This document shows, piece by piece, positions 84 to 33,100 of a DNA stretch of 64,000 nt (position 1 is its first letter; the number at the start of each line of letters is the position of its first letter). A model generated the notes under the pieces. That model worked only from the letters and a program-made list of their open reading frames with translations, had not been told where the DNA came from and did not search any database. Made by a program: the position numbers and the translations under genes. Origin of the DNA: a virus (lineage: Duplodnaviria > Caudoviricetes); the IMG/VR virus record IMGVR_UViG_3300012973_001074, positions 51,532-115,531 of that record; one strand, written 5' to 3'.

Positions 84-707
84 ATGAGAATTGTCACTCT
101 CGTCGGATTCGTCGCTCTGGTCGGTGCGTGCTCCAGGGGGAACGCCATTGGTCCCGATGACCGGCACCCGGACGGGCAGCAGAACCAGGACCCTTCGAAG
201 GACGATCCCTCCGACCCTTCGAAGCCGACCCCGTCAGACCCTTCGAAAGCCGGGACGAGCGGTTCGCGGTTGAAGGCGCGCTACTACGAGGGCGAGGACG
301 GCTCGAAGCAGTTCATCGGCTGGTGGGACTCGCAGCGGCAGGAAGACTGTGTGATGGTGCCAGCCAAGGATGGGAAGCTGCGCTGCCTACCGGCGGCAAA
401 TGTCGCCATCACTGGCTACGCAGACGCGAACTGCAGCGTGCCTGTCGTGACGGTCCGCAAGGGCTGCGCTGCGCCGTCGGCGGCAATCGTTATGGAAACG
501 TCAGGGAACGTATCCTGCAGCCTGGGATACGCGTACGCCGCGTACGGTGTAGACCCTGCGAAGTTCACCGGGACGTTGTACGGAGGCTCGCCTTCGACCT
601 GTAAGGTCACAACGGGCGAACCGTACGCCGAAACCATGGATTTTCACCGACTCAGCTCGGAAATTCCTCCGACCTCGTTCGTAGCGGTGAACCAGACGCA
701 CGACTAG
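84..707 (+). CDS. Cys-rich lipoprotein, myxobacterial type (moron)
   Basis: Lipobox LVGAC, Pro/Ser/Asp linker, SGSRLKARY..WDS..C motif. ATG at 84. Confidence 0.75.
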   Translation: MRIVTLVGFVALVGACSRGNAIGPDDRHPDGQQNQDPSKDDPSDPSKPTPSDPSKAGTSGSRLKARYYEGEDGSKQFIGWWDSQRQEDCVMVPAKDGKLRCLPAANVAITGYADANCSVPVVTVRKGCAAPSAAIVMETSGNVSCSLGYAYAAYGVDPAKFTGTLYGGSPSTCKVTTGEPYAETMDFHRLSSEIPPTSFVAVNQTHD

Positions 708-1606
708 TTGAGGCCGACTTCTTCGAGCTCGGGGAGGACGGGGTAGGCGATGCATCGGCAGTTGATGGGCTCGCCCGGGTGGCCCTCTTCGGGGTGACCG
801 TCGGCCCACGTGAAGCGCGCGCCTTCGAGGTCCTTGTGCTCGGGCCGCACGCGCTCGTCGTTGCTCGTCGTCCAGATGTACTCATCGATGCCCGCAGCGG
901 TTTGGCGCTCGCGGGTGATGTTCGCGTTGAGCGTGAGGATCTGGTCCCGCGCGAGCGCCTCGGCGCGCGACAGCGTGACATCGTCGAGCTGGCGCGCGAT
1001 CTCCTTGGCGAGCGTCTGCGCCGTGTGGCCTCGGCCCTCGCGAAGGATCCTCTCGATCTTCGCGAGCTGGTCCTTCTGCATGCCCGTGATGCGGGCGACG
1101 TTGTCCTTCCGCCAGCCGTCGATGAGCCACTTGAGGTGGGGCTCCTTCTCGACGTTGATCCCGAGGCGGGAGAACTCGCGCTGCGAGTGCTGCACGACGC
1201 GCTTGGCTGCGCGGTTCGATGTTCGTGAGAAGCCGGGTTCGTTGAAGGCATCGAAGCCTGCGAACTCCAGGTCCTCGAGAAGCTCGTCGAGCTCCGAGTC
1301 CTCGAGCAGCTCCAGGTCGAGATCCTCGAGCTCGTCACCCGGTGCATCGAGCCGCTCGGCAGCGTCGGTCTTCGTGACGCGGCGCTCAGCGGCGGCGGCG
1401 AGTTTTGGAAAGACGACCTTCCCGACGGCTCGTGCGAAGGCGGCCGCGATGCGGCGAAGCTCCAGCACCATCATCAGCTCGGCCCCGCGCGGCAGTTGAG
1501 GTGAGCGGGTGCGGCGGACGGCGTTGCTGGGAGGGCGTTGGGTCCTCTTCGGGAGCCTCGGTCGGCGAGGCCTTCGCGGCGGATGGCGCAGTGCTGCGCG
1601 AGCCAT
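704..1606 (-). CDS. Phage minor head morphogenesis protein (SPP1 gp7 / MuF family)
   Basis: RAEALARDQ, YIWTTSNDERVRPEH and HPGEPINCRC motifs; downstream of portal. Confidence 0.92.
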   Translation of the reverse strand: MARAALRHPPRRPRRPRLPKRTQRPPSNAVRRTRSPQLPRGAELMMVLELRRIAAAFARAVGKVVFPKLAAAAERRVTKTDAAERLDAPGDELEDLDLELLEDSELDELLEDLEFAGFDAFNEPGFSRTSNRAAKRVVQHSQREFSRLGINVEKEPHLKWLIDGWRKDNVARITGMQKDQLAKIERILREGRGHTAQTLAKEIARQLDDVTLSRAEALARDQILTLNANITRERQTAAGIDEYIWTTSNDERVRPEHKDLEGARFTWADGHPEEGHPGEPINCRCIAYPVLPELEEVGLN

Positions 1607-3775: not shown

Positions 3776-3967
3776 ATGAATGCGAAGTCCCCGAAGACGG
3801 TAGAGGCACCGAAGCCAGGCAAGTCGAGCCTGGACATGTTCAACGAGGCCTACGCGAAAGCGATGGCCGAGGAAGCCGAGGAGACCGAGAACCTCCCGAA
3901 GGCCTTCACGCCGGAGGAGAGCCTGGTCGAGGTCGTGGACGACGACGACAAGCACTTCGGCGTCTAG
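3776..3967 (+). CDS. Small acidic protein (63 aa) convergent on the zeta-domain gene; candidate antitoxin
   Basis: Strong AAGGAGG RBS; stop overlaps the stop of 3964..5916. Confidence 0.65.
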   Translation: MNAKSPKTVEAPKPGKSSLDMFNEAYAKAMAEEAEETENLPKAFTPEESLVEVVDDDDKHFGV

Positions 3968-5916
3968 CCGCCGCGTTTCCTCTGCAGCTTGACCTTGTGG
4001 CCGTTGGCCGCGTCGTAGACCGTGAGGTTCGGCGCGGCCGCGTGAATTTTGTCGCGGGCCTTTTCGATCTTCGCGTACGTGCCGCGGATGACGTGCTCGG
4101 GCACGTAGCGCCCTGAGCCCTCGGCGCGCGAGGCGGCGCGCCGGACGCCCTCGTCCGGGTTCAGGTCAGGGTGGTGCACGTGGACGTCGTAGCCCTTCGC
4201 TTCGAGGTGGTTCATCAGCGCGATGAACTTGTCGGCGTTGCCGCCCGTGCCGTCGATGATCACGTGGTGCCCGCGGTCGACGGCGCGGTCCCGGATCTGC
4301 TTGGCGACGGCGCTCGACTCCTCGTGCACCTGCGCGGCCGCGCCTCGGAACGTCGGGCCGGCGCTCGGGTCCTTCGGAACGCTCGCCTTGTACTCGGGGA
4401 GCTGGGACTTCACTTCGTCCGGATCGACGTGGACGAAGCGCGACGTGTCGAGACCGTGTTTCGCGAGCTTGCCGAGCACGACGCCTTTGCCGCTCGCCGG
4501 TCCGCCCATCGTGAGGATCGCGATGGGCTTCTCGCCGAGCTCGCCGGCGGTCTTCTTGCCATCGAAGGCGGGCGCGATGAGCTCGCGTTCGTGAAAGGCG
4601 GCGCGCTCGGGCGAGGGCTTGCCGCCTTCGTCCGGGTGCTTGTCGTAGTGGTCCTTCCAGGTCTCGTTGCTCTTGCCCATCAGCTGGCCGGACCACGAGC
4701 CGTCGGGGTTCTCGGTGCCGACCCAGGTGCGACCGGGCTTGAGCGGTTCGTCCTTCGCCGGGGCGGGCTGCTTCTGCGCGCTCGGCGGGACCTTGTCGTG
4801 CGTGCTCGAGAAGTCCCCCGCGGGCCCGCCGCTGCCGCCTCTACCACCGACCTTGTGCAGGCCCGGGCCGGGCGGTCCCTCGCGGTCGCTGCCGCCGCTG
4901 CCGGAGCCGATGCTCGTCCAGCGTCCCTCCTCGTCGCGCGGAACGCCTTCCCACTCGTCCGCGTCCGTGCGCTCTTCACCCGCTTCGAGACCGAATTGCG
5001 CGGCGAGCTGCCTCCACGCCCATTCGAGCTGCTTGTCGGTGAGCTTCGGGTTCTCGCGCTTCGCCTCGGCGAGCCACTGACCCTTGTACTTGCGTGGGTT
5101 CGCTGCGAGCTCGTCGAGGAACTCGTCGCGCGCACGCTTTTCCGTGTCGCTCACGCCCGGCTTCGCATCGGTGCGCGTCTTTTCGAGGCGCATCGTGACG
5201 TAGTCGGGGTGATCGAACCGGTCGTAGTCCCAGTCGGTCGCCGCGTACTCAGAGTTGAACGCATCGCGCGTCGCCTCCTTGAAGCCGACCTTCTCGTAGA
5301 GCTTGTTGAGGGTCGGCCCGTAGCACTCGACGTAGTTGACGCCGTAGTTGTCGACGACGTGACGAAGGAGCTCGACGCCGATGCCCTTCTGGCCACCCTG
5401 GTTGAAGAGCGCTGTCGCCTCGATGCGCCCGTCACCGTGGTCTTTGACCGCGACGCCGGCCTTGCCGTCGGGGCTCATGACGCAGCTCATCTTCCCCAGG
5501 TCTTCGACCCCATAGTGCGAGACGTGATGCTTGAACGGGGAGTCCTTGAACGCAGAGTCGAAGGCCGCCTTGAACTTGTCGGCCTTCTCGCGCACGGGCG
5601 AGACCGCGGCGCGCGCGCCCTCGGCGCTCTTCCAGTCGCCCGAGCTCGAGCCGCCGCCCTTGCCGCCGGGACGGTGCACACCGATGCCCGCGTCGGTCCC
5701 CGCTGAGGTGTCGCCGCCGCTGCTCGTCCAGAGGCCCTTCTCGTCGCGCGGGACCTCCTCCCAGCCTTCGGCGTCCGTGCGTTTCTGCTGCTTGTCGCGA
5801 GAGCCGGTGAGCCCTTCCTGCTCCTTCCTGGCCGCCGCGCCGGGCTCGGGCTCGTCGCCGTCGAAGACGAAGCCGCCGAGCTCGGACGAGATGAACCGGT
5901 CCGCGCGCGTCGTCAT
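3964..5916 (-). CDS. Multidomain virion-associated protein: GNAT-like acetyltransferase + zeta-toxin-like P-loop kinase
   Basis: GNAT: ALFNQGGQKGIGVELL..ECYGPTLNKLYEKVGF. Zeta: MGGPASGKG, DPDEVK, HEESS, IIDGT, SGRYVP. Confidence 0.85.
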   Translation of the reverse strand: MTTRADRFISSELGGFVFDGDEPEPGAAARKEQEGLTGSRDKQQKRTDAEGWEEVPRDEKGLWTSSGGDTSAGTDAGIGVHRPGGKGGGSSSGDWKSAEGARAAVSPVREKADKFKAAFDSAFKDSPFKHHVSHYGVEDLGKMSCVMSPDGKAGVAVKDHGDGRIEATALFNQGGQKGIGVELLRHVVDNYGVNYVECYGPTLNKLYEKVGFKEATRDAFNSEYAATDWDYDRFDHPDYVTMRLEKTRTDAKPGVSDTEKRARDEFLDELAANPRKYKGQWLAEAKRENPKLTDKQLEWAWRQLAAQFGLEAGEERTDADEWEGVPRDEEGRWTSIGSGSGGSDREGPPGPGLHKVGGRGGSGGPAGDFSSTHDKVPPSAQKQPAPAKDEPLKPGRTWVGTENPDGSWSGQLMGKSNETWKDHYDKHPDEGGKPSPERAAFHERELIAPAFDGKKTAGELGEKPIAILTMGGPASGKGVVLGKLAKHGLDTSRFVHVDPDEVKSQLPEYKASVPKDPSAGPTFRGAAAQVHEESSAVAKQIRDRAVDRGHHVIIDGTGGNADKFIALMNHLEAKGYDVHVHHPDLNPDEGVRRAASRAEGSGRYVPEHVIRGTYAKIEKARDKIHAAAPNLTVYDAANGHKVKLQRKRGG

Positions 5917-8834
5917 TGGACCTCCTCGGCATCGATGAGAAGACGCGGCGGGCGACCGATCTCGAGGTCGACCTGCGCGTAGCTTTCGCGCTTCACCGAC
6001 CTGATCCGGAACCGTGTTCCCTTCGGGAGGAGGACCTCGGCTTCGTTCTGGTACTCGGACGCGCCGGAGACCGTGACGCCGCTCTTGTGCTGCACGCGAA
6101 TCACGGCATCGAATCCGTGGGGCAGGACCGCTGCGGTGGCGCCGCGATCGAGGTCCTCCTTTTCGAGGCTCGCGAACTGGGTCGCGACGTCTCGGTGATC
6201 GGAGAAGCTCGTCATCGAGTCGAGCGTGAACGTCTGCGAGTTGAGCATCTTCTCGACGACGCGCGGCGGGACCTGCTTGAGACCGCGGTAGACGGTCCCT
6301 GGCGTTGGGGGCACGTCGCGGAAGATGCCGTTCAGGTGCTCGATCGCCTGCTGCGCGCGCTCGGTGTGGTCCGCCGCGGACGAGGCCCCGTGCAGGAACT
6401 GCTTAGCGAGCTCCTCGGGCGTGCGGACGTGCTGGTCGCCATAGCGATCGGGCTGGGAGCGATACAGCGTCCCGGCTTCGTTCAGCGTGTAGCCGGACTC
6501 GGCGATCCGCTGGTCGAGATGCGCCTGCGTCGCGCGCGTGACCTCTTCGGGATCCGCTCCCGATTCGAGCTTGCGGATCGAAGTGTCGTAGCCCTTCGTG
6601 TACTGCGAGAGCGCATCGTAGTGCTCATCGCGGAGCTTGCTCGCGACGGCCTCCGCAGCGTCGAGGTGAGCGCGCTCGTTGAACGTGTTGCGCGTGTCTT
6701 CCTCGGTTGCGGCCTGCGAGCGGATGACGCGCGCGAGGGCCGCTCTCTCGCTCGCTCGCTCTGCAATCGGAGGCGGCTCGCCATTCTTGAAGAGGTGCTC
6801 TTCGTCGAAGTCTGCGAGCGCCTTCGCCTGCTCGCGCGACAGGCCGCGTGACTCGAGGCGATCGATTCGCTCGGCGACGTCGCCTGATACGCCCTCGCTC
6901 TCGACGATGCTGCTGATGCGCGCGCTCTTGTCGCCAGACCGAGGCTCAGAGCTCGAGTCACCGTCCTTCGGCGTGAACCGGCCCCCATCGGGCTCGCCAG
7001 CCGGCACGCGTTCGACGTTCGCCTCGTCCCAGTCGTCGGTGCGGACCGCGTCGTCGAGGAAGCGGATCTCGGTCTTGCCGCCGTGTCCGTGGATCTCGCG
7101 GACCTCGTCGAGCGAGTCGAAGAGCGTCGTCGAGCGGTGCTTCGTGAGCCAGCGCATGGCGACGGTGCCGTCCTCGAAGACGGCTCCGTGAGCGACGACG
7201 CCGGTACCGGAGACGCCGGTCTCGTCCTCGATGCGGTAGAGCTCGAAGAGGCGCGGACCGCTCGTCGCGTCCGTGCGCACGCGCGCGCGCTCGTAGTCGT
7301 CTTGGGTCGGCTTCGGCTTCTGCGCGACGCCGGGCGGAAGCTGCGGGGGACCTCCCTGCTGGGGGCCTCCCTGCTGCGGGGGACCTCCCTGCGGGGGCGG
7401 ACCTCCCATGCCCGGAGGGGCGCCCGGTCCGCCCATCTCCGTCGGGTCGGGCGGGTTCTCCATTTGCTCGAGGTCGGCCTCGAGCACGGCCTGGCGCGCC
7501 TTGATGGCGTCGTCGGAGAGCCGGACCTCGTCCTCGAAGCCGCCGGCGATGCCGAAGCGCGCGATGGCGACCTCCTCGGGCAGCAGGACCTGGGCCTGGA
7601 TGTACGTCGAGTCCCGCTGCGCGATCGCGCTCTGGCGCTGCGCCTGCACGAGCGGTGTCTCGGTCCAGAGCGGGGTGAACTTGACCGTGAGCGACTTTGG
7701 CCGCGTGCGCGTCGGCGACGCCTTCGACTGCAGCCAGATGACGAGCAGGCGCCGGATCTTCGGCGCGAGCATCGTCGTCTGCTCGGCGCGGATGCGGTCG
7801 TAGAACCAGCGGAAGTCGCTCTCGCCCGTGGCGTTCATGCCGGCGGGCGACTGGCCCATCAGGATGGTGACGGGGATCTGCACCGCCGCGGCGAGGCGGA
7901 GCATGAACTTTTCGAGCGTCGCGGGGATCTCGCTGAACGAGACGGAGTGCCGCGTGAACTCCTCCTTCGCGTCAGCATCGACGACGATGGCGCGCATCAC
8001 CGAGCGGTAGAGCTCGATGATCTGCAGGCGCGCCTGGAGCTTCGCCTGCTCGTTGGCGCCGATCATCTCGGCGAGACCGGTCATCTTGAAGATGGCCTGG
8101 TTGCCGTCGGTGAGCAGCGTCTCGACGGCCGCCCATCCGGTGTTGAACGAGCGCAGCACGTTGTACGCGCGCTGCAGGACGGACATGTCCCAGCCGAAGA
8201 GCTGCTGCCGCTCGCGGATGCCCGTCGATGCTCCGCGGAAGAGGATGAGCCGCGACTCGTGGACAAGCATCGTCGGCGACGACTTGGCCCCGGCCGCGGT
8301 GACGGCGTACGTCTTGGGCGTGCCGAACTTCGGGCCCGGTTCCTCGTAGAAGTCGACGGGCCAGAGAAGTCGGCGATCGAGCGGGTAGAGCCACTCTACG
8401 TCGTTCGCGCGCGCGGGCTTGAGCGGCTTCCAGGCCTCCTGGCCGTCGTCGGCACCGATGAGGACGGCGCCGCCGCCGTAGCAGCGGCCCCACTTGGACC
8501 CTTCTTGGAAGTTGCCGCGGACGTCGAGCGCGTCGAACTTCTCCTGGATGACCTCGTCGAGCTTCGGGTCGCCGGTCTCGATCGAGAACGGCTCGCGAAG
8601 CATCTCCTGCGGGACGACGTCGACCATGCGCGCCGCCATGTCGTCTGCGTGATAGAGCGCGGAGAGCTCGACATCCTCGAGCATCCGGTTCGGTAGGACG
8701 TAGCCGTAGGTCGTCTTGTCGCGCGCGGTGCCGAAGCCGGTGACCTCGTTGATCCACGCGTCGAAGCGCGACGTAGCGCGTGCGCGGAAGGCGCCGAGCG
8801 CCTCGCGCATCTTGATCGACGCGGAGTTCAGCAT
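5913..8834 (-). CDS. DUF1073/HI1409-type phage portal fused to a small beta domain and a C-terminal VIP2-like ADP-ribosyltransferase
   Basis: Portal: LSALY..MAARMVDVVPQEMLR, IPVTILMGQSPAGMNATGESD. ART R-S-E triad: VYRGL, MTSFS, QNEAEVLLPKG. Confidence 0.9.
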   Translation of the reverse strand: MLNSASIKMREALGAFRARATSRFDAWINEVTGFGTARDKTTYGYVLPNRMLEDVELSALYHADDMAARMVDVVPQEMLREPFSIETGDPKLDEVIQEKFDALDVRGNFQEGSKWGRCYGGGAVLIGADDGQEAWKPLKPARANDVEWLYPLDRRLLWPVDFYEEPGPKFGTPKTYAVTAAGAKSSPTMLVHESRLILFRGASTGIRERQQLFGWDMSVLQRAYNVLRSFNTGWAAVETLLTDGNQAIFKMTGLAEMIGANEQAKLQARLQIIELYRSVMRAIVVDADAKEEFTRHSVSFSEIPATLEKFMLRLAAAVQIPVTILMGQSPAGMNATGESDFRWFYDRIRAEQTTMLAPKIRRLLVIWLQSKASPTRTRPKSLTVKFTPLWTETPLVQAQRQSAIAQRDSTYIQAQVLLPEEVAIARFGIAGGFEDEVRLSDDAIKARQAVLEADLEQMENPPDPTEMGGPGAPPGMGGPPPQGGPPQQGGPQQGGPPQLPPGVAQKPKPTQDDYERARVRTDATSGPRLFELYRIEDETGVSGTGVVAHGAVFEDGTVAMRWLTKHRSTTLFDSLDEVREIHGHGGKTEIRFLDDAVRTDDWDEANVERVPAGEPDGGRFTPKDGDSSSEPRSGDKSARISSIVESEGVSGDVAERIDRLESRGLSREQAKALADFDEEHLFKNGEPPPIAERASERAALARVIRSQAATEEDTRNTFNERAHLDAAEAVASKLRDEHYDALSQYTKGYDTSIRKLESGADPEEVTRATQAHLDQRIAESGYTLNEAGTLYRSQPDRYGDQHVRTPEELAKQFLHGASSAADHTERAQQAIEHLNGIFRDVPPTPGTVYRGLKQVPPRVVEKMLNSQTFTLDSMTSFSDHRDVATQFASLEKEDLDRGATAAVLPHGFDAVIRVQHKSGVTVSGASEYQNEAEVLLPKGTRFRIRSVKRESYAQVDLEIGRPPRLLIDAEEVQ

Positions 8835-8911: not shown

Positions 8912-9223
8912 CTATTTCGGCGCGTTCAGCGGGCGGCGGCGCATCCGCTCGATGCGTCGCCGCGTCTGTTCGAGTCCCCGCGAGATAGCCCTCCGCCGAT
9001 CGTCAGGGCTGAGAACGCGAAAGGAGGCAGCACCGGTCGGCGGAGGAGTCTCAGAGATGCGCCGCGTCGGCGGTGGCTCGTCGTCGTCGCGGCAGCCGAC
9101 GAGAGCGCGGAAGCCTGGGGTGCACGGGTCGCGCGCGTCGCACGAGAGCGCGAAGCCTGCGCCGCTTTCCGGCCCGCACGTGCAGTCCTCGCCCATGTCG
9201 CAAGTGAGCGCGTGGACCTTCAC
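8912..9223 (-). CDS. Small Cys-containing hypothetical protein
   Basis: GTGA overlap with the TerL stop; fills the gap before portal. Confidence 0.4.
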   Translation of the reverse strand: MKVHALTCDMGEDCTCGPESGAGFALSCDARDPCTPGFRALVGCRDDDEPPPTRRISETPPPTGAASFRVLSPDDRRRAISRGLEQTRRRIERMRRRPLNAPK

Positions 9224-10608
9224 GTGCCGGTCCTCTTGCCCAGCGCTTCGACCATCGGGTTGACCGTCGAGCAGGCATGCAGCGCCAGGGCGAGGGCCCA
9301 GGCTCGGTCGCCGTGCCCTTCGCTCGTGCGCGGCGTCTCGTACTTGACGTTGCCTGCGCTCGTAATGACGCGCTTGATCGACGCGAGCTCCTTGCGGAGA
9401 AGCTCGGCGGTCTTCGGCTCGGCGAACGGAAGGACCTTGTCCTCGGCGGGGAGCCGGACGTTCTTCGCCGCGGTCGCCGCGTACAGGCCCGTCGCGAGCT
9501 CCTCTTTCATGTTCGGAGTGAAGTCGACGAGCTCGACGCGCGGGCGACGGTGCGGGACGTCGATCCTCTCCGAGTGCTTCCTCTTGATGCGTTCGGCCGG
9601 GAAGTAGCCGAGGCCCGTAGAGTCGATGCAGAGGCGCTTGAGGTGGTACTTCTCGAAGGCGCGCGAGACCATGGCCTCGAGCCCCTCGGAGTCGGTCCGC
9701 TTCATCGTCTCGACGTGGACGACGTAGCGGACGCCTCTCACGAGACGGACGACGAGCAGGACGGACAGGTCGACCTCGCGGCCGATGTCGAGGCCTGCGT
9801 AGTAGTCGCCGTACGCGAGGCCCGGAACGTCGTAGCTGACGCTGCAGGCCTTGATCTGGTCGGTCGGGATGTACTGCAGCTCGTTGTCGAGGAACGAGCA
9901 GCGGAACATCTGCGCGAACAGGCGCGGGTCGCCCTTCGCCAGCTTCCAGCACTTGCGGAGATCGACTGGGTAGCCCTGCGAGATCGCGAGCTCGATCGGA
10001 ATCGAGTGCGGGGCCCATCCGCTGTTCGGCTCGAGGGCCTTTTCCCAGAGGACATGGAAGTCGTTCCCGATGCCGTTCGGCGTCGAGACGACCCGCATCT
10101 TGTAGCCGAGGAGCGTGACGGGCGCGGCCGCGTCCCAGACCTTGGCGGCGTGCTCCTGGTAGGCGAACTCGTCGAGGAAGACGTTGCCGGTGAAGCCGCG
10201 GCCACCGGAGGAGGGGAGCGCGAGGATCCTTCCGCCGCTCGCGAAGGTCAGCTCGTTCGAGTTGTCCTTGCGCCCGAAGCGCGCCATCTCGGAGCCCAGG
10301 GCCTGCAGCACCTGCGCGTGCTTGCGCGCCTTGTCGAGGACCTCGACGGCCTCGCGGTCGCCGACGGAGATGACCGTGGTGAGCTCGCCGTGGAAGGCGC
10401 CCCAGAGAACGCCGACGGCGCTCGTCGTGTGCGAGGTGCCGATCTGGCGAGACTTGTTCGCGATCGCCGCGTCGTTCTGCTCGAACAGCCAGTCGCGCTG
10501 GAACGGGTAGAAGCTGCCGGCCCAGGCGGCGAGCGCCGAGAACTCACTCTCGGGGAGCGCTTGCTGGTACTTCGCCAGCGCCTGCGCCGCTTGACTCGGA
10601 AGCCTCAT
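9220..10608 (-). CDS. terL: Terminase large subunit
   Basis: ANKSRQIGTS (Walker A), VFLDEFAY (Walker B), VSTPNG, YAGLDIGR and HGDRAWALALA nuclease motifs. Confidence 0.93.
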   Translation of the reverse strand: MRLPSQAAQALAKYQQALPESEFSALAAWAGSFYPFQRDWLFEQNDAAIANKSRQIGTSHTTSAVGVLWGAFHGELTTVISVGDREAVEVLDKARKHAQVLQALGSEMARFGRKDNSNELTFASGGRILALPSSGGRGFTGNVFLDEFAYQEHAAKVWDAAAPVTLLGYKMRVVSTPNGIGNDFHVLWEKALEPNSGWAPHSIPIELAISQGYPVDLRKCWKLAKGDPRLFAQMFRCSFLDNELQYIPTDQIKACSVSYDVPGLAYGDYYAGLDIGREVDLSVLLVVRLVRGVRYVVHVETMKRTDSEGLEAMVSRAFEKYHLKRLCIDSTGLGYFPAERIKRKHSERIDVPHRRPRVELVDFTPNMKEELATGLYAATAAKNVRLPAEDKVLPFAEPKTAELLRKELASIKRVITSAGNVKYETPRTSEGHGDRAWALALALHACSTVNPMVEALGKRTGT

Positions 10609-11164
10609 CCGGTGGTCCCTGCTGCTCGGGCGGCGGCGGCGGCGGTTGCTCGAGCCACGCGGGATCGATGGGCGCCGGCGGGACCGTGACCTCGCCGACG
10701 GCGGGGCCTCGCGCGCCGTGCTCGCCGAAGAGCTCCCGCACGAGGCGGGCGGCCTCGACGACCGTGGGCGCGTCGCCCATGAGCGGGCCGCCGTTTGCGC
10801 CGGTGAGCTGCTGCTGTTTCGGCGCGTCGAGCCCGAGGTACGCGGAGATCCGCGTCTGGATGGCGAGCATCCGGTCGATGGCGGCGAGCTCGCCACGCTG
10901 AGCGCGCTGGTAGAGACCGCCGCGCAGGACCGCTTCGAGCCTCGCGACCTCGATCCAGCGCTGCTCGTCGACCGTCTCGTTCGCCTCCTGCCGGAGTCGC
11001 TCGACTGCCTTGCGGAACACCTTGAAGGGACCGGACGCGTTCGCGTAGCCGAGCTCCTTCGCGATCATCGACCACGTGAGCCCGGCGCGCCGGCGCTGGA
11101 TGATCGACTCTTCGAGCTCGAGGTTCGCGACCTCGCCCGCGTCACGCTTCGACGTGTTGCCCAT
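10544..11164 (-). CDS. terS: Probable terminase small subunit (HTH)
   Basis: RRRAGLTWSMIAKELGY HTH, LGLDAP..LTGANGGPL tail; directly upstream of TerL. Confidence 0.75.
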   Translation of the reverse strand: MGNTSKRDAGEVANLELEESIIQRRRAGLTWSMIAKELGYANASGPFKVFRKAVERLRQEANETVDEQRWIEVARLEAVLRGGLYQRAQRGELAAIDRMLAIQTRISAYLGLDAPKQQQLTGANGGPLMGDAPTVVEAARLVRELFGEHGARGPAVGEVTVPPAPIDPAWLEQPPPPPPEQQGPPDEASESSGAGAGEVPASAPRE

Positions 11165-16159: not shown

Positions 16160-17269
16160 CTACTGCAGCTTCACGACTGGATGAGCGCGTGGTTGAGGCG
16201 CACCAGGAAAGGCCGCGAAACACACGCGATCGCCGACAACGACCGTATCCCCGTACACGCTAACCGTGTGGAAGAAGATCTCTCGCCCCTTGGCATCGTT
16301 GATGAACCCGAACGCATACGGGCCGAAGGGGAGGCTGCGGACGACTCCTTCTTGCCGAGGAGCAGACGAGTAGCAAAGCGCACTGCACGCTGCGCTTAGC
16401 TCGTCTGCGGTCAAGCGCGCCTCGGGATCGACCACGACGCACTTCAGAACGAGCTGATACAGCTCGTCGATGAGCGGAGCGAATTGGGGCTTACGGCGCG
16501 CGAGGGGAAATGGCGGGACCTTGCCTTCGAGGATGAGCGGGACAGCCTTGAGACCACTGCCAAATGGCTTCGTCCCCGTGAGCAGTTCGTAACAGATCGC
16601 CCCCAGGGCCCAGACGTCAGTCGGTTTCCCGCTCTTGCTGGGGGTCTTGATCATCTCGGGAGACATGTACGGGAGCGCTCCAACCGCCGTCTGGCTCGCC
16701 GTCAGCGATTGGTCGTCTTCGGCCGCTGCCTTCAGCTCTTCTTCGGCCATCTTCGCGATACCGAAGTCGGTGATCTTCACGACGGCCAACGACAAGCCCG
16801 GCGAGACCATGATGTTGCTCGGCTTCAGGTCGCGATGCACGACGTCGACGTGGTGCGATGCGGCAACTCCGTGCGCGAGGTAATGTAGAATGTGCGCGAC
16901 GAGGTACGGATCCATCAGGGGCAGCCGAACGCGCAGGTCATGCAGGTCCTGTCCCTCGATGAACTCTTCAATGAGGTACGAACGTCCGCCGTCCTCAAAG
17001 TAATCGAGGGTCTTGGCTGCGTTCGGGTGGTTCACCTTGGCGCTCAGCAACGCGCTTCGCTTGAAGCGGCGCTCCGCCGAAGCATTCTTGGGCACCTTGA
17101 GCGCGACCACTCGATCCAGCGTCTGATCGAGCGCCTTGTAGACCTCCTGCATGCCGCCGGCCCCGATGGAGCCAACGACCTCGTACCGACCACCGAGAAC
17201 CTCGCCGACCTGATGGATCGCGTTCTCGCGTCGGCGCGCAGGGGGGATGTTGGGCGGAGTCGTGCTCAC
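16160..17269 (-). CDS. Ser/Thr kinase with C-terminal cold-shock domain (KKP module)
   Basis: GAGGMQEV, VALK, HRDLKPSN, DFG, YMSPE; CSD FGFI..EIFFH..GDRV. Confidence 0.92.
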   Translation of the reverse strand: MSTTPPNIPPARRRENAIHQVGEVLGGRYEVVGSIGAGGMQEVYKALDQTLDRVVALKVPKNASAERRFKRSALLSAKVNHPNAAKTLDYFEDGGRSYLIEEFIEGQDLHDLRVRLPLMDPYLVAHILHYLAHGVAASHHVDVVHRDLKPSNIMVSPGLSLAVVKITDFGIAKMAEEELKAAAEDDQSLTASQTAVGALPYMSPEMIKTPSKSGKPTDVWALGAICYELLTGTKPFGSGLKAVPLILEGKVPPFPLARRKPQFAPLIDELYQLVLKCVVVDPEARLTADELSAACSALCYSSAPRQEGVVRSLPFGPYAFGFINDAKGREIFFHTVSVYGDTVVVGDRVCFAAFPGAPQPRAHPVVKLQ

Positions 17270-18369
17270 GGGACGACGACCTCCGGGCGCGAGATGTCGA
17301 CGGTGACGAAAAGGCGCTGGTTGCCCGGCCCGACGCTACCGAGCGTGAGGACGCAGCTCTCGGGTATGCGCATGTTGACTGTGACGGGGACGTTGTTGAG
17401 GTACACGTCTCCCGCCGCCGCGGTGACGAAAAAGCCGAGGCCGTCATAGTTGATTGTGACGGTGCCGAGACCTGGCTTCTGCACGACTACGGAGCGACGG
17501 GTCGCATCGCACGTGTAGGAGCCACCCGTGTGCGTCAGCAATGCGCGGTGCTGGCCTTCGACGAGGTGAGCCTCGAGCAGCGCACGGACGTCACGCATGT
17601 TCGGTCGGCTAGCCGGGTCCGAGCTGAGGCACGCGTCGAGCAACGGGCAGACTGCCGCGGGGATCGACATCGCGAGTGTTCCGAACCCTCGCGCTTGCAC
17701 CCATGCATCGGGCCGCGGTGGTCTCTCGAGCAGCTCCGCGGATGGCTTGCCCTTCGCGAGACAGATCGCGGTGACAGCGAATGCGTACACATCCACGGCC
17801 TTGGTGAACCGCACGATGCCGGTCGTGTGTAGCTCCGGCGCCGTGAAGCCGTCCGTCCCGACGTAGCCACGCGTTTGCGCGTCCTGGTCCTCGTCCGCGC
17901 GCGCGAGGCCGAAGTCGAAGATTTTGAGGATGTTCTCTTGGTCGTAGCGAACGTTGTTCGGCTTGATGTCGCGGTGGATGCGGTCCTGGGCGTGGATGTC
18001 CTCGAGGCCGCGCGCGAGCTGATAGAGCACGCGCAGGAACTGCTCCGGCGTTGGCGCCGTCTTCCAGAAGCCGGAGAGATCGTTCCCAGGAAGGAACTCC
18101 TGCACGATCCCGATCTGGTTCCCGGGTTGGTGGATCACCACGTCGTAGAGCTGCACGACGTGCTTGGACCGGATCGCCTGCAGCGCGCGAACCTCGTCGA
18201 GAACGCGACGTTTGTCTCGCCCCGGCAGGAGGAATTTGATCGCGACCCTGCGCTCGAGCTGCGGGTCAATGCAAAACTCGACGGAGCCCATCCCGCCCGC
18301 AGCGGACGGCGTCCCGTCCGGAATGTATCGCCCCCCAAAGGCGGCCGTGTTCGACGCGATGCTGGTCAT
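17266..18369 (-). CDS. Ser/Thr kinase with C-terminal FHA-like beta domain (KKP module)
   Basis: HRDIKPNN, DFGLAR, TAPE; C-terminal GDVYLNN..SCVLTLG. Confidence 0.9.
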   Translation of the reverse strand: MTSIASNTAAFGGRYIPDGTPSAAGGMGSVEFCIDPQLERRVAIKFLLPGRDKRRVLDEVRALQAIRSKHVVQLYDVVIHQPGNQIGIVQEFLPGNDLSGFWKTAPTPEQFLRVLYQLARGLEDIHAQDRIHRDIKPNNVRYDQENILKIFDFGLARADEDQDAQTRGYVGTDGFTAPELHTTGIVRFTKAVDVYAFAVTAICLAKGKPSAELLERPPRPDAWVQARGFGTLAMSIPAAVCPLLDACLSSDPASRPNMRDVRALLEAHLVEGQHRALLTHTGGSYTCDATRRSVVVQKPGLGTVTINYDGLGFFVTAAAGDVYLNNVPVTVNMRIPESCVLTLGSVGPGNQRLFVTVDISRPEVVVP

Positions 18370-21612: not shown

Positions 21613-22038
21613 ATGATTGAGATGAAGCCGTTTGCACGACATGACTGGTACGGGTTCGCGGGCGCGGAGCGCTTCGCCGACGGCAGCGAGCCGCTGATTG
21701 GCTCGGCCACGGTGGTCTCGGAAGGGACCGAATTCGGCGCGATCGTCGTGCTCGACGCGGTGGGCCTCTTCGTGGAGGTCATCTGCGACGAGGGGAACCG
21801 GCTCGCCTACGTGGTGTTCGAGGGCTCGTACGCCGCGCGCTCTCTGGCGATGCTCGGCAAGAGGGTCGAGTGGCCGGTCCTGCGCGCCATGCCCGGTGCG
21901 GAGGTCCTCGACCACGAGGTGCCGAAAGGGCGCGAAGACGAGCTCGTGTGCGTCGAGTGCGAGCACGGCTCGCACTACGGCATGCCGGACGACGGCGTGC
22001 CCGCCTTCCCGACGGTCTCGACCCTGGCGGCGCACTAA
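21613..22038 (+). CDS. Hypothetical phage protein
   Basis: Follows promoter module; DWYGFAGAE motif. Confidence 0.65.
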   Translation: MIEMKPFARHDWYGFAGAERFADGSEPLIGSATVVSEGTEFGAIVVLDAVGLFVEVICDEGNRLAYVVFEGSYAARSLAMLGKRVEWPVLRAMPGAEVLDHEVPKGREDELVCVECEHGSHYGMPDDGVPAFPTVSTLAAH

Positions 22039-22041
22039 CGC

Positions 22042-22100
22042 GGAGTCCCCGAAGTTTCTTTCGGGGAGCCACTAGACTTTCGGACACGGCGACCGATACT
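22042..22100 (+). promoter_or_regulatory. Bipartite promoter module 3
   Basis: GGAGTCCCCGAAG, TAGACT, TTCGGAC-ACGGC-GACCGAT, GATACT. Confidence 0.78.
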
Positions 22101-22121
22101 AAAGGTGTGAGGGAGACGACA

Positions 22122-23282
22122 ATGGCAAACGTGACCAGCATCAGCAGCAAGAAGTCCACGACCAACGCGAGCGGCCTCGTCCAGCTCGTCGCCGAATTGA
22201 ACGCCGCGTTCCCGGAGCGCTCCGAGGTCGTCGCGGCCCTCGTGACGGTGGCTGTCGCCGGCGAACATGCGGTGATGCTCGGTCCGCCCGGTACCGCGAA
22301 GAGCGCGCTCGCTCGAGCCCTCTCGGCGGCCTTTCAGACAAAGAGCTACTTCGAGCTTCTGATGACGCGGTTCACGACGCCCGAGGAAGTCTTCGGGCCG
22401 GTGAAGCTCTCGGGCCTGCAGCAGGACCGCTTCTCTCGCGCGACGGCGGGCTACTTGCCGACGGCGGAGGTCGCGTTCATCGATGAGATTTTCAAGGCGA
22501 ACAGCGCCATCCTGAACGCGCTGCTCACGGGCCTGAACGAGCGCGTGTTCCACGACGACGGCAAGCCCGTCAGCATCCCGCTCGTCACGTGCATCGCGGC
22601 GAGCAACGAGCTTCCCGAGGGCCCGGAGCTGGACGCGCTCTACGACCGGTTCCTCGTTCGCGTCGTCACCGACTACATCGCGGACCGCGACACGTTCCGT
22701 GACCTCCTCGCCAACATCGCGGGCGGAAAGCACACGAAGGTCGCGGCGACGGTCGACATTCGCGCGGAACAGGCCGCGGCCAAGAAGGTCACGATCACGG
22801 ACGAGACGATCGACGCTCTCACGGGCCTCCGCGACGCGGCTCGCACCGCGGGCCTCACGGTCTCGGACCGCCGGTGGGTCCAGTGCCTCGCGCTCGTTCG
22901 CGCCGCGGCCCACGTCGACGGCCGGGCCTCGACGCTCCCGGATGACCTCGAAATTCTGGAGCACGTGCTCTGGCGCAAGCCGGACGAGCGAGTCTCGGTG
23001 GCGCGGACCATCCAGACGACGGTGAACCCGGCAGGCGCGAGGGCGGTCGAAGAGCTCGACGCCGCGCGAGAGCTTCTCGCGAAGCTCCCGGTCCACGGCT
23101 CGGTCGACCCGGGCTCTTACATGGCCGCGATCGGCAGCGCGACGAAGGACATCAGCGAGATCCTCAAGCGGGTCTCGGGCCTCCCGTCGGGCCGCAAGGT
23201 GGACGCCGCGAAAGCGGAGATCGCCAAGATCAAGCAGGACATCGGCAGGCGGGCAATGCGCGCGGCGGGCATTGAGCTGTGA
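22122..23282 (+). CDS. MoxR/RavA-like AAA+ ATPase
   Basis: LGPPGTAKS, TRFTTPEEVFGP, FIDEIFKANSAILNALL, ASNELP, ALYDRF. Confidence 0.93.
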   Translation: MANVTSISSKKSTTNASGLVQLVAELNAAFPERSEVVAALVTVAVAGEHAVMLGPPGTAKSALARALSAAFQTKSYFELLMTRFTTPEEVFGPVKLSGLQQDRFSRATAGYLPTAEVAFIDEIFKANSAILNALLTGLNERVFHDDGKPVSIPLVTCIAASNELPEGPELDALYDRFLVRVVTDYIADRDTFRDLLANIAGGKHTKVAATVDIRAEQAAAKKVTITDETIDALTGLRDAARTAGLTVSDRRWVQCLALVRAAAHVDGRASTLPDDLEILEHVLWRKPDERVSVARTIQTTVNPAGARAVEELDAARELLAKLPVHGSVDPGSYMAAIGSATKDISEILKRVSGLPSGRKVDAAKAEIAKIKQDIGRRAMRAAGIEL

Positions 23283-23414
23283 GGTCGGTCGCGGAGGCCG
23301 CCTCCGGCGCTCCTCTGGCCCTCCGGGGCCGGTTCGGGCGCCGGTGCTCCCCGGACCCTTCGGCCGGGGCTCGAGCCCTCCCGCGGGCGCTCTACGCAGC
23401 GCACGGACCGCACC

Positions 23415-23474
23415 GAAGTTCCCGAAGTTACTTTCGGTCGCGGTCGACACGTTCGGACGCGGCGTCCGTATGTT
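23415..23474 (+). promoter_or_regulatory. Bipartite promoter module 4
   Basis: GAAGTTCCCGAAG, 24 nt, TTCGGAC-GCGGC-GTCCGTA, TATGTT. Confidence 0.78.
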
Positions 23475-23504
23475 CTATGGGTGTAACGGAGCTGAACGGA
23501 GGAG

Positions 23505-24962
23505 ATGACGATGGATCGCGCGAACTGCTACGACGTCCCGAAGCACCACCGAAACCTGTGGCGCGACTACTCGACGGAGACCCGCGAGCCGGCGCGCGTC
23601 GCGGAGACCGGCGACAAGCGCGCGTCGGGCTTCGGCGAGGGCTTCATGCCGGAGCTGTTTCACCGACTGTACGCGGAGACGCCGCGCGAGGTGGCGGACG
23701 ACTCCCGGTCGACGGCGGCGGCGGTTCGGTCGAAGCTCCACGGCCTCGTGAGCGAGCTGCCGGAGTTTGAGACCCTGCGCAAGCAGACCGTGCGCGACGC
23801 AATGTGGTCCGGGATGGCGGCGACGGCGCTCGCCGACCACGTCACGCGGGTGATGCCGGACCTCTCGCCCAACACGCCGGACGCGGACCGCGCGACGGCG
23901 CTGCTCGAAGGCCTGCAGCAGCTCGCCGGCGACACGCCGGAGGCGGCGCTCGCGTTCGCCTCGCACGTTGCGAAGGCCAAGGCCGCAGCGGAAGCCGCGG
24001 ACGCGGCGGTGAGCGCGCAGGCCGCGAGCCTCGACGAAACGGCGCTCCGGCAGGCGATGCGCGCGGGCATCAAGGCCGCGGCGGACGCGATTGACGAGGC
24101 GGAGGCGGCGCTCGCGTCGCTCGGTTGGGGAACGTCGGTCTCGGGCGGCGGAGCGAACAAGGCCCCGGGCGTCGCGGTCGAGCTGGCTCGCCGGGTGCGC
24201 TCGTCGGAGACCTTGAAGCGGATCATCGAGCTTGCGGGTCGGCTCATCCTGACCGCGCGGCAGAAGCGAGCCACGCGAACCGAGTATGCCCGCAGCGAAA
24301 TCGTGGGCGTCGAGCAGACCGGGAACCTCGCGCGGATCCTCCCGAGTGAGCTCGTCTCGCTCGCCGACCCGATGATGACCGCGAGCCTCTACCGGCGAGT
24401 CCTCGAGCGCGCGGCGCTCGGGTACAAAATGGCCGGCTCGGAACGGTCGGCGAAGGGACCGATCGTCCTCCTGCTCGACCAGAGCGGCTCGATGCTCGAC
24501 GACGGAAAGGACGAATGGGCGAAGGGCGTCGCGCTTGCGCTGCTCGACGCGGCCCGCGCGGAGAAGCGAGCCTTCGGGATCATCCTCTACAACGGCGGCG
24601 TTGCTGAGGCGAAGCTCTTCCCGGTCGCCGCGGACGCCGACCCGCGCGCCATCCTCGACCTGCTCTCGCGGTCGCCGGACGGCGGAACGAACTACGCTCC
24701 CGCGATGAAGCAGGCCCTCGACTGGATCTCGACGGCCGGGACCTTCAAGCGCGCGGACGTGGTCCACATCACCGACGGCGAGGCTGACACGAAGGAGGCA
24801 GCGGCCGCTCGGACCCGCGCGAAGGACCTCGGCGTCCACATCTTCGGCATCGGAATCGCGGGCGGTGGCCGGGCTCTGGAGGCCTGGAGCGACGAGGTCC
24901 GGACCATCCGCGACGTCAAAGCGGACGCCCCGGCGGTCGACTTGATCTTCGATTCGATCTGA
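23505..24962 (+). CDS. ViaA-like vWA domain protein
   Basis: GNLARILPSEL, GPIVLLLDQSGSM (MIDAS), GGTNY, ITDGE. Confidence 0.92.
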   Translation: MTMDRANCYDVPKHHRNLWRDYSTETREPARVAETGDKRASGFGEGFMPELFHRLYAETPREVADDSRSTAAAVRSKLHGLVSELPEFETLRKQTVRDAMWSGMAATALADHVTRVMPDLSPNTPDADRATALLEGLQQLAGDTPEAALAFASHVAKAKAAAEAADAAVSAQAASLDETALRQAMRAGIKAAADAIDEAEAALASLGWGTSVSGGGANKAPGVAVELARRVRSSETLKRIIELAGRLILTARQKRATRTEYARSEIVGVEQTGNLARILPSELVSLADPMMTASLYRRVLERAALGYKMAGSERSAKGPIVLLLDQSGSMLDDGKDEWAKGVALALLDAARAEKRAFGIILYNGGVAEAKLFPVAADADPRAILDLLSRSPDGGTNYAPAMKQALDWISTAGTFKRADVVHITDGEADTKEAAAARTRAKDLGVHIFGIGIAGGGRALEAWSDEVRTIRDVKADAPAVDLIFDSI

Positions 24963-31151: not shown

Positions 31152-31234
31152 CGCGGCCTCCGCACGAGAGACGAGACAACGCCCATCACCGATTGGTGAT
31201 CGTGCGCCATGGGGCGACGGAGGAAAGGTGTATC

Positions 31235-33100
31235 ATGCAAGAGACGAAGATTAACTGGACCGAGCATTCATGGAACCCGGTCAGCGGCTGCACGAAAGTG
31301 AGTGAGGAGTGCAAGCACTGCCTCGACCCATCGACACCGATTCTCTACGCCGACTTGACGTGGCGACCAATCGGCGATGCGCGCGTCGGGGACGAGTTGC
31401 TCGCCTTCGACGAACATTCGCTCGACGGTCAGCAGCGCGCGTTCCGAACGACGCGTATCAAGGCGGTATGGGCGTCCACAAGACCGCGCGTCCGCATCGT
31501 CACGCGCCAGTCCGACATTGTTACGACCGGCGAACACCGCTGGCTTGTGACGAACGGAGGCCGGACCCCGTGGCGGGACACGAACCACCTGTACCGCGGG
31601 AACATTCTGCGCTGGCTCGGCGACAGCGAGAGCCCGAAAGAGACCAGCGATTATCGGCGCGGCTACCTCGCCGGCATGACGATGGGCGACGGGACGTACC
31701 GCTTCGACCCGAGCCGCGCACGCTCGGAGCAACCGCAGCCGTACTGGCGAGTCGCGCTCATCGATCACGAGGCGATCGGTCGACTCGTCTCGTACCTGGC
31801 GTCGTTCGGCATCGAAGCCCATTCGCGGCCGTTTACGCAGAACATGTCGTGCGTCGAGCTTCGGAGCATGGGCAAGCTCGCGTTGATCGACCCGCTTCTG
31901 ACCCACGACGACCAGACGACGGAGTTCGCGCGTGGCTACGTAGCCGGCTTCTTCGACTCTGAGGGCTCTTTCAGCGCGGGCAACATCCGCCTTTGTCAGA
32001 AGGACCCGAACGTCCTCGCCCGCGTGACGCGCTACATCGCGCGTCTTGGGTTCGCCTGCTGTCTCGAGAGTAACGGCACGGCGGAGGGCGGACCGATCAA
32101 CATCATTCGCGTTCCGGGCGGAATCGTCGACCAGATGCGGTTTCTGTCGACCATCCAGCCGGCGATCAGGCGCAAGCTCGCGCCCGCGCTCGACGGCGCG
32201 AAGCTTCGGTCCGACCTGACTGAGGTGATCCTTACCGAGAAGGCCGGTACCGGCGACGTCGTGGACATCGAGACGGAGAGCCATACGTTCTTCGCGGCCG
32301 GAGTCGCGACGCACAACTGCTACGCCGAGACGCTCGCCGAGAACCGCCGCGGGACGCCCGCGTTCCCGAACGGATTCGACATCACGCTGAGGCCTTGGAA
32401 GCTCGGCGAACCGCGGAAGATCAAGCGCGGCTCGCTGATCTTCACGAACAGCACGTCGGACCTGTTCCACGAAAAGATCCCCGACGAGTATCGCGACCAG
32501 GTCCTCGACGTCATCGAGTCGACGCCGCATCACCGCTATCAGGTCCTCACGAAGAGGCCCGAGATTGCCGCGCGCTTCGCCAAGCGCCGGGCGCTCCCGC
32601 GCAACATCTGGCTCGGCGTCACCGTCGGCCACGCCAAGCGCGTCGAGCGGATCGACATCCTCCGGAGCATCGACGCACACGTTCGCTTCATCTCGGCGGA
32701 GCCGCTCCTCACGGACCTGCCGAAGCTCGACCTCCGCGGGATTCACTGGCTCATCTCGGGTGGCGAAAGCGGCGCGCACCTGAGCGACGCGAAGGTGATG
32801 GCGCGCCGCGGGCTCGTCATGCGCGGAGAGGTGGGCGAGCCGCGTTGGGTCCCGAGGCTCGATCGGTACGGCTGGATCGCCTCGCTCCGCGACCAGTGCG
32901 TCGCCGCGGGCGTCGCCTACTGGTTCAAGCAGTGGGGCGGACCGCGGCCCGAGTCCGGCGGGCGGGTGCTCGAGGGCCGGACCTGGGAGGAGCTGCCGAC
33001 GTTCATCGCGGGCGCCATGCCGGACAACTACCAACATCGGGCCGAGCTCAAACGAGACCACGTGAAGGCGGGCAAGCTGCAGCTCCCGCTCGTGCAGTGA
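31235..33100 (+). CDS. DUF5131 (phage Gp37/Gp68, radical-SAM-like) protein interrupted by an intein
   Basis: INWT..WNPVSGCTKVSEECKH/CYA, SDLFH, QVLTKRP, ISAEPLL, GGESG, FKQWGG. Confidence 0.92.
   Translation: MQETKINWTEHSWNPVSGCTKVSEECKHCLDPSTPILYADLTWRPIGDARVGDELLAFDEHSLDGQQRAFRTTRIKAVWASTRPRVRIVTRQSDIVTTGEHRWLVTNGGRTPWRDTNHLYRGNILRWLGDSESPKETSDYRRGYLAGMTMGDGTYRFDPSRARSEQPQPYWRVALIDHEAIGRLVSYLASFGIEAHSRPFTQNMSCVELRSMGKLALIDPLLTHDDQTTEFARGYVAGFFDSEGSFSAGNIRLCQKDPNVLARVTRYIARLGFACCLESNGTAEGGPINIIRVPGGIVDQMRFLSTIQPAIRRKLAPALDGAKLRSDLTEVILTEKAGTGDVVDIETESHTFFAAGVATHNCYAETLAENRRGTPAFPNGFDITLRPWKLGEPRKIKRGSLIFTNSTSDLFHEKIPDEYRDQVLDVIESTPHHRYQVLTKRPEIAARFAKRRALPRNIWLGVTVGHAKRVERIDILRSIDAHVRFISAEPLLTDLPKLDLRGIHWLISGGESGAHLSDAKVMARRGLVMRGEVGEPRWVPRLDRYGWIASLRDQCVAAGVAYWFKQWGGPRPESGGRVLEGRTWEELPTFIAGAMPDNYQHRAELKRDHVKAGKLQLPLVQ
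31319..32317 (+). mobile_element. Intein (333 aa) with LAGLIDADG homing endonuclease
   Basis: Starts CLDPSTPI, block B TGEHRW, YLAGMTMGDG and YVAGFFDSEG, ends THN followed by C. Confidence 0.93.

Follow-up and report, generated by a model that had tools for sequence, protein, structure and literature searches.

The anti-CBASS nuclease Acb5 (CBASS, cyclic-oligonucleotide-based antiphage signalling system; Acb5, anti-CBASS 5 family) acts as a homotetramer and cleaves 3'3'-cyclic GMP-AMP (3'3'-cGAMP) at both of its phosphodiester bonds, and residues R10, W38, and H61 of Acb5A are required for its anti-defence activity (bioRxiv 10.1101/2025.07.12.664507; PMC13577500). Its active sites lie at the protomer interfaces, and its products are 2'3'-cAMP and 2'3'-cGMP. 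Its homologues are found in phages of Streptomyces, Mycobacterium, and Bacillus and in Haloarcula viruses, and it shares no structural homology with Acb1 or with other phosphodiesterases used in immune evasion (bioRxiv 10.1101/2025.07.12.664507). The main text of that preprint, its supplementary homologue tables aside, makes no mention of a portal or virion association. Fusions of effector domains, including ADP-ribosyltransferase (ART), 2H, Nudix, and PBECR domains, to portal and MuF head proteins are already known from surveys of 2017 and 2022; these surveys predict that the effectors are packaged and injected, and explicitly state that ARTs are fused to head or portal proteins (PMC5512222; PMC9503650). 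MuF proteins of temperate phages are also described as carriers of polymorphic toxins (Jamet et al. 2017, PMC5576092). Here we describe P0001, a 973-amino-acid (aa) open reading frame (ORF) in a 64,000-nucleotide stretch of Caudoviricetes DNA (the window; positions 51,532 to 115,531 of IMG/VR virus record IMGVR_UViG_3300012973_001074), in which a portal protein, a small domain, and an ART form a single chain.

The combination of a head-structural carrier with enzymatic effectors is shared by P0001 and the fusions of Iyer 2017/2022. Those surveys predate Acb5, and in the passages searched neither the order portal-Acb5-variable cassette nor the R-x-D / RDxxGRF-GGG code described below was found (PMC5512222; PMC9503650). 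What is new here is that the domain embedded in the portal chain is assigned to Acb5, that Acb5 is regularly appended to the portals of a clade without a cultured member, and that a conserved junction code marks off the modules. An original prediction, made from the letters of the window, had described a portal with an embedded stand-alone domain and a C-terminal ART. It had also stated that such portals can carry anti-defence C-terminal fusions, which are documented (PMC5512222, PMC9503650). P0001 is organized as follows.

5913..8834, minus strand: whole ORF P0001, 973 aa, portal - linker - Acb5 - leader - ART (translation).
7425..8834, minus strand: portal domain of the Phage_portal_3 / DUF1073 / TIGR01555 type, residues 1-470 (Pfam, PHROG, and Pam3 match).
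7278..7424, minus strand: Pro/Gln/Gly-rich low-complexity linker, residues 471-519 (sequence).
7266..7277, minus strand: R-T-D-A junction mark, residues 520-523, a candidate protease site directly before Acb5 ([RKH]xD[AG] conservation).
7047..7259, minus strand: Acb5 (PF26761) cyclic-dinucleotide nuclease domain, 71 aa, residues 526-596, assigned by PF26761, phrog_7499, and Atlas.
7233-7235, 7149-7151, and 7083-7091, minus strand: predicted Acb5 key residues R534, W562, and H582 with H584 (alignment).
6975..7043, minus strand: R-T-D-D mark and degenerate cargo leader (RTDDWDEANVERVPAGEPDGGRF), residues 598-620 (homologues; disordered in the model).
5916..6929, minus strand: ART module, residues 636-973, helical N-terminal part and predicted R-S-ExE catalytic domain (Pfam, PDB, Foldseek).
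6285-6287, 6207-6209, 6042-6044, and 6036-6038, minus strand: predicted ART catalytic residues R850, S876, E931, and E933.

The source is a temperate, myovirus-like provirus of about 115 kb. The IMG/VR record has 115,531 bp and 67% G+C, is 94% complete according to CheckV, was excised from a 149,757-bp contig, and bears no terminal repeats. Because the provirus is metagenome-derived, a mis-assembly, a missed stop, or a frameshift might have joined separate portal, Acb5, and ART genes, which we regard as highly improbable. The frame is open throughout its 973 codons, with no internal stops in the translation of the minus strand. Its G+C at third codon positions (GC3) is uniformly high (0.94 in the portal part, 0.94 in the Acb5 domain, 0.82-0.88 in the ART part, and 0.80-0.94 over all segments), similar to the remainder of the record. 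The identical protein is present in four source collections, the portal-linker-Acb5 arrangement recurs on other portals, some with a long tail (see below), and the junctions bear conserved motifs. The fusion is thus real, as had been predicted; the interval 5913-7277 first assigned to it corresponds to residues 520-973 and the stop codon. In the sequence ATGA that stop shares bases with the start codon of the next gene, and a GAGGAGG ribosome-binding site lies within the final ART codons.

Pfam matches Phage_portal_3 (PF06381) to residues 56-409 (E 8.5e-72, 242.2 bits against a cut-off of 33.8), covering positions 2-356 of the 357 in the profile, and phrog_146 matches residues 20-446 (1.8e-93). 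The closest solved structure to the portal part is the dodecameric Pam3 portal (8hds, 1.1e-29). Gene position also places P0001 in this family, as it lies in the head-packaging module and adjoins the large terminase. Pfam and PHROG scans found no MuF domain within P0001, which ruled out a portal-MuF fusion. The linker between portal and Acb5 (about residues 461-513) includes PPPQGGPPQQGGPQQGGPP, and linkers at this position vary in length and sequence among relatives. Many related portals have an extra conserved segment of about 60 aa here (...VNEARASxGLPPL...FKAKxA..., for example at residues ~525-580 of P0006); it is not found in P0001, where the PQQGG linker occupies its place (alignment A3). 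As a separate observation, residues 23-26 of the portal (8757-8768, minus strand) read RFDA-W, with a clade consensus of RxDxWxNxVTGFGT, and resemble the R-x-D-x-W start of the cargo leaders.

The small domain is matched by phrog_7499, a 91-aa family of unknown function, over residues 517-598 (E 8e-27, positions 7-89 of 91). P0001 bears a precomputed PF26761 hit, and the protein Atlas clusters of the domain are named Acb5 (score 0.92). Searching the whole database retrieved 152 homologues that stand alone as proteins of 64-156 aa, each with the label PF26761, and tblastn hit 154 phage records, with Streptomyces, Bacillus, Haloarcula, and Mycobacterium viruses. The domain is therefore, as the original prediction had stated, a free gene in other phages, and its distribution matches that given in the Acb5 preprint. 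The domain is 43-64% identical to 49 aligned PF26761 proteins (~60% to free-standing members), and throughout the resulting alignment of 50 family members (A1) the equivalents of R534, W562, H582, and H584, that is the R, the W, and the two H of HGHGG, are invariant. The spacing of 28 between R534 and W562 equals that between R10 and W38 of Acb5A, the residues being equated by spacing and not by an alignment to Acb5A itself. By these sequence criteria, residues 526-596 are an Acb5-family domain with the predicted functional R, W, and H in place. The original prediction had recognized an embedded stand-alone domain, which exists as such, but missed its identity as a characterized anti-CBASS cGAMP nuclease.

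Modelled as a monomer with AlphaFold2 (AF2), the Acb5 domain has a predicted local distance difference test score (pLDDT) of 83. Foldseek against the PDB returned a best E of only 0.2 (SH3, YkuJ), a wide VIA-align search a best Z of 5.6 (adenylyl cyclase IV, Med18/20), within the noise of the tool, and a PDB sequence search nothing meaningful. No fold was assigned to the domain from these matches. The lack of a convincing match to a solved fold agrees with the lack of structural homology reported for Acb5 in the preprint. P0001 differs from the published Acb5 in its setting: the described protein is a short stand-alone homotetramer, whereas here the domain sits on a portal C-terminus, bracketed by R-x-D marks.

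With respect to the ART, Pfam ADPrib_exo_Tox scored 24.6-28.2 bits against a cut-off of 23.4, PDB sequence searches matched Vis (8e-5) and Tre1 (9e-4), and phrog_802/832 gave further hits. An AF2 model of the last 376 residues of P0001 has a pLDDT of 81.6, with values below 50 for module residues 1-33. With this model, Foldseek retrieved Vis (2e-9), C2-I, Certhrax, CDTa, C3, VahC, and Tre1, all with probability 1.00, and the target-normalised TM values were 0.55-0.71 for single-domain targets. Among viral models, the matches were Alt-type RNA polymerase ADP-ribosylases, MuF-type minor capsid proteins, and two portal-annotated proteins; portal-annotated proteins with an ART-like fold are thus already in public databases. 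The triad motifs R850 (YRG), S876 (SMTSFS), and E931-A-E933 are invariant or at least 90% conserved among 64 aligned sequences. Sequence and model together identify residues 636-973 as a C3/Vis/Alt-like ADP-ribosyltransferase with an ExE motif. The predicted intact R-S-E triad was thus found, and structure prediction of the C-terminal region returned the ART fold. In R-S-E ARTs the ExE motif indicates arginine specificity, and arginine specificity would be predicted here from that motif only.

The nearest relatives of the ART module are non-portal proteins of 222-685 aa, and a single-sequence search of viral contigs with the module found no relatives. Vis of Vibrio splendidus, C3, and Tre1 of the Serratia type VI secretion system (T6SS), the best solved-structure matches, share with the module the NAD-binding R, the STS-like motif, and ExE. 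They are only 12-18% identical to it, however, and are secreted or T6SS-delivered toxins, not virion components.

To place P0001 among its relatives, we surveyed 120 listed proteins of 535-1703 aa that are related to its portal part (P0001 and 119 relatives), locating Acb5 with a hidden Markov model and building a FastTree tree from the portal parts alone. Acb5 is present on 41 of the 120, P0001 included, and the other 40 belong to different 90%-identity clusters. The P0001 portal falls within a set of 45 rows with 97% support, 40 of which carry Acb5. The Acb5 label requires 7 changes on the portal tree, against 34 for shuffled labels. Acb5 forms the extreme C-terminus in about 25 portals and is followed by 140-460 aa in about 16. 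The extra domains found in the survey were as follows.

RelA_SpoT: 3 portals.
Zeta_toxin: 2 portals.
HNH_3: 3 portals, in two of them between portal and Acb5.
NUDIX: 1 portal, without Acb5.
ART: 1 of the 120 listed proteins, P0001 only.
Extra tails without a Pfam match: several, long.

Acb5, and not the ART, is therefore the conserved appendage of this portal clade, and the enzyme behind it is swapped. Anti-defence fusions do recur among related portal C-termini, as the original prediction had anticipated, but the constant appendage is Acb5 and the ART on which it had focused is a single variable cassette. A protein found in 2025 as a small free phage protein is thus built into a whole portal lineage. 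BLAST clustering was rejected as a means of sorting the C-terminal tails, since linker segments shared between them ran the tails together into a single cluster that told nothing.

More distant portals carry a different nuclease. Portals about 40% identical to that of P0001 (P0356 and the portal of locus L004) have a 2H/LigT phosphoesterase at the C-terminus. One portal with a C-terminal 2H domain and about 40% identity comes from a Rhodoferax metagenome-assembled genome (MAG). In the Myxococcaceae MAG SCUS01000049.1 (L008:7974-12216, plus strand), the portal is about 38% identical and ends in a 2H/LigT phosphoesterase, and the following gene encodes MuF, a RTDAGDFKESEHPRDHGQF leader, and an ART. 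With the ART on MuF and the 2H domain on the portal, this MAG places the same cassettes on different carriers. None of the 32 closest portal loci from alignment-based scans carries Acb5, and a single-sequence portal search of genome contigs found no relatives.

Acb1 is a member of the 2H family, and by analogy with it the portal 2H domains may act on cyclic nucleotides. By sequence, related lineages carry nucleases of two unrelated families, 2H and Acb5, at the portal C-terminus. In both arrangements the inward-facing end of the portal would bear a cyclic-nucleotide nuclease. They differ in fold and chemistry, Acb5 cutting both cGAMP bonds at a tetramer-interface site, so that Acb5 and the Acb1-like 2H nuclease are a non-homologous replacement at the same portal position. 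Their parallel occurrence is convergent evidence that a portal-tied cyclic-nucleotide nuclease benefits phages, and the tie to the portal probably ensures that the nuclease is present before CBASS can signal.

The route that we propose for these enzymes draws on the neighboring head genes. The head operon runs in the order large terminase, P0001, the 650-aa P0002, a 292-aa protein of unknown function, MuF, an 859-aa protease ORF, a cement protein, the PF09950 major capsid protein, and a DUF3383 protein. With a portal and two effector domains on one chain within this operon, P0001 has the architecture of a polyvalent protein (PMC5512222). The genes considered below are:

9220..10896, minus strand: large terminase, upstream of the portal, listed start probably too early (Pfam Terminase_6C, Terminase_6N).
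3964..5916, minus strand: P0002, 650 aa, translationally coupled cargo polyprotein with leader, GNAT-like module, leader, and zeta-toxin-like kinase (Pfam Zeta_toxin 7e-27).
704..1606, minus strand: separate MuF (SPP1 gp7-type) minor head protein without an effector domain (Pfam Phage_Mu_F 8.5e-21).
L001:15715-18294 = genome 47715-50294, minus strand: 859-aa ORF with S78 protease, acidic linker, RADA and VPREEDGRWTS tag, DUF2213, and a coiled-coil scaffold-like tail.
L001:14040-15044 = genome 46040-47044, minus strand: PF09950 major capsid protein, upstream of the window.

The first ~150 Arg-rich codons of the 859-aa ORF are probably untranslated, with MPKNLL as the likely start.

Our preferred explanation, to which we assign a probability of roughly 0.6, is that the portal carries Acb5 and the ART as cargo that would be loaded via the portal ring, freed by a protease, and ejected with the DNA. 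In the established portal architecture the C-terminal crown faces the capsid interior. The enzymes would thus lie inside the head; the original prediction was right that the ART is portal-borne, but not in placing it at the exit vertex. Because the enzymes belong to the portal ring, each procapsid would receive 12 copies of each. The prohead protease (the S78 domain of the 859-aa protein) would then cut at RTD(A/D), freeing Acb5 and the ART inside the head. This release is suggested by the R-x-D-A/G marks that bracket the modules and by analogy with T4 gp21, which processes Alt and internal proteins. Freed Acb5 would form active tetramers, 12 copies giving 3 tetramers, and when the virion next infects a cell both enzymes would exit together with its DNA. 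CBASS signals of the 3'3'-cGAMP type would be degraded by Acb5 ahead of all phage gene expression, and the ART would act on an arginine target of the host. A cargo of about 12 molecules would suit an enzyme, in contrast to a sponge that binds its ligand stoichiometrically. The locus makes testable the question of whether anti-CBASS enzymes are pre-loaded in virions.

T4 Alt is the model for this route of prohead-protease cutting and ejection. The P0001 ART shares with it the R-S-ExE architecture of the Alt/VIP2/C3 group, and its fold matches to T4-like Alt-type proteins have probability 1.0. Alt, however, is a free protein recruited to the prohead core in about 40 copies, whereas the P0001 ART is covalently part of the portal chain, would be present in about 12 copies, and has another N-terminal helical region.

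The conserved marks around each module suggest release of the enzymes by cleavage rather than their display as 12 copies tethered to the portal. Of the 41 portals with Acb5, 35 have [RKH]xD[AG] at the N-terminal boundary of this domain, against 0.05 per window expected by background, and the alignment consensus at this boundary is RxDAxxRxFxLxR. Most enzyme cassettes are preceded by a fuller leader consisting of R-x-D-(A/G), (D/W)(D/E)xx(H/Q)(P/E)RDxxG(R/K/Q)F, and then a glycine run; it is seen on portals, on MuF, on stand-alone polyproteins, and five times in one 2407-aa protein. The leader RTDDWDEANVERVPAGEPDGGRF also precedes the ART in the non-portal homologues P0128, P0129, and P0131, with a looser RLDDW copy in P0130. 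The provirus contains five RTD[AD] motifs, each at a domain junction of P0001 or P0002, with none in the other 23.5 thousand residues. P0002 contains three RTDA sites, and RTDA with a WEE-VPRDE-G-W-TS tag stands ahead of each of its cassettes. Similar R-x-D motifs are found in MuF and between the protease and DUF2213 domains.

The major capsid protein has HFDA at residues 18-21. Among its homologues in the fetched loci, 55 of 73 have [RKH]xD[AGSD] at the same N-terminal place, with a consensus of R-L/F-D-A-N/G-E-T-A. The capsid motif could mark a site of propeptide cleavage, or it could have a structural role in the N-arm. By analogy with T4 gp21, the overall pattern is as expected of a prohead-protease recognition site used throughout the head, which falls short of proof.

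These marks also bear on a different explanation, in which Acb5 and the ART stay tethered and, on portal monomers or rings in the cytoplasm, act late in the producer cell on a host target and on the cGAMP that CBASS makes upon sensing late phage proteins, the fusion only ensuring co-expression with the late genes and delivering nothing to the next host. Long flexible linkers would permit activity of the tethered enzymes, and one survey raises the possibility that ARTs linked to packaging genes counter immunity aimed at the portal or terminase (PMC9503650). Tethering leaves unexplained, however, why the R-x-D-A/G mark stands exactly at the Acb5 N-boundary. The same cassettes, with a common leader, occur on MuF and on head-operon polyproteins, which points to encapsidation, and the low-copy portal would be a poor vehicle for cytoplasmic activity. 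We therefore consider permanent tethering unlikely.

Several points nevertheless weigh against our preferred explanation. Cleavage at R-x-D is purely inferential, drawn from sequence patterns and analogy, which counts in favor of tethering, as does the position of Acb5 as the extreme C-terminus, with no further module behind it, in about 25 relatives. A literature search found no published protease with R-x-D specificity and no RDxxGRF leader, and the Pam3 structure paper contains no processing data. The R-x-D-x-W of the portal N-terminus and the R-x-D-A of the capsid N-terminus could be structural motifs instead of cleavage sites. The leader before the P0001 ART is degenerate (VPAGEPDGGRF compared with RDxxGRF-GGG). 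The tetramer requirement of Acb5 may be hard to reconcile with tethering or with a packed head. The Acb5 assignment is based on precomputed labels, PHROG 7499, Atlas names, taxonomic distribution, and key residues, with no alignment to Acb5A, and the best isolated-phage portal is 34% identical to that of P0001.

The zeta modules of portals P0248 and P0249 are 54-58% identical to the zeta module of P0002, and the GNAT-like modules of portals P0270, P0268, and P0343 are 49-59% identical to its other module. Since the P0002 modules resemble the C-termini of related portals in this way, cassettes move between the portal and the separate cargo protein.

As in the MuF toxins, a constant head-protein N-terminus is combined with variable toxin domains (ART, RelA-like, nucleases) in a temperate phage, at or by the portal gene (PMC5576092). 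In P0001, unlike those toxins, the carrier is the portal itself, MuF is separate and effector-less (704-1606), and no immunity gene is evident. This likeness raises the possibility that the ART and the zeta kinase follow the logic of a MuF-type polymorphic toxin, arresting non-lysogenic competitors or excluding superinfection while lysogens are immune. In its favor, the conserved head-protein carrier with variable toxin-like C-termini (ART, RelA/SpoT, zeta, HNH) parallels the MuF toxins (PMC5576092), the record is a provirus, and the relatives by sequence and fold include Tre1, a T6SS-delivered ART that is lethal. A search of the provirus confined to the ADP_ribosyl_GH and Macro families found no such immunity candidate, the gene directly downstream encodes the cargo protein P0002 and not a small immunity protein, and the constant partner, Acb5, is an anti-defence enzyme and not a toxin. 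With no hydrolase-type immunity gene present, we judge a toxin-and-immunity function quite improbable, and weaker than tethering.

Returning to delivery with the DNA, we tentatively extend it to a portable cargo code, which on balance we hold to be possible though doubtful. In a wide group of phages with PF09950-type capsids, each enzyme cassette would bear an R-x-D-A/G mark, cut by the prohead protease, and a (D/W)(D/E)xx(H/Q)(P/E)RDxxG(R/K)F-GGG leader that would address or demarcate it. Acb5, 2H, ART, zeta kinase, RelA/SpoT, GNAT, and HNH cassettes would be shuffled among portal, MuF, protease-scaffold, and stand-alone polyproteins, and the enzymes would be delivered pre-made with the DNA. 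If such a code exists, the portal-Acb5 clade would provide the first virion-preloaded anti-CBASS nuclease of the Acb5 family. The junction marks also offer a handle for finding further encapsidated effectors, many without a Pfam match, such as the tails of P0250, P0251, P0258, P0283, and P0291.

Elsewhere in the window, we noted the following genes.

16160-18369, minus strand: two tandem eukaryotic-type Ser/Thr protein kinase genes, one with a weak C-terminal cold-shock match (E 2e-4, under the Pfam cut-off).
21870-24962, plus strand: a MoxR-type AAA+ ATPase (bpMoxR), followed by a VWA-domain protein.
31193-33100, plus strand: a DUF5131 (phage Gp37/Gp68-type) protein split by a LAGLIDADG-like domain, apparently inserted as an intein or homing endonuclease.
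42950-48118, minus strand: a 1722-aa Type ISP restriction-modification enzyme (Mrr_cat_2, helicase, coupler, methylase, Type_ISP_C).

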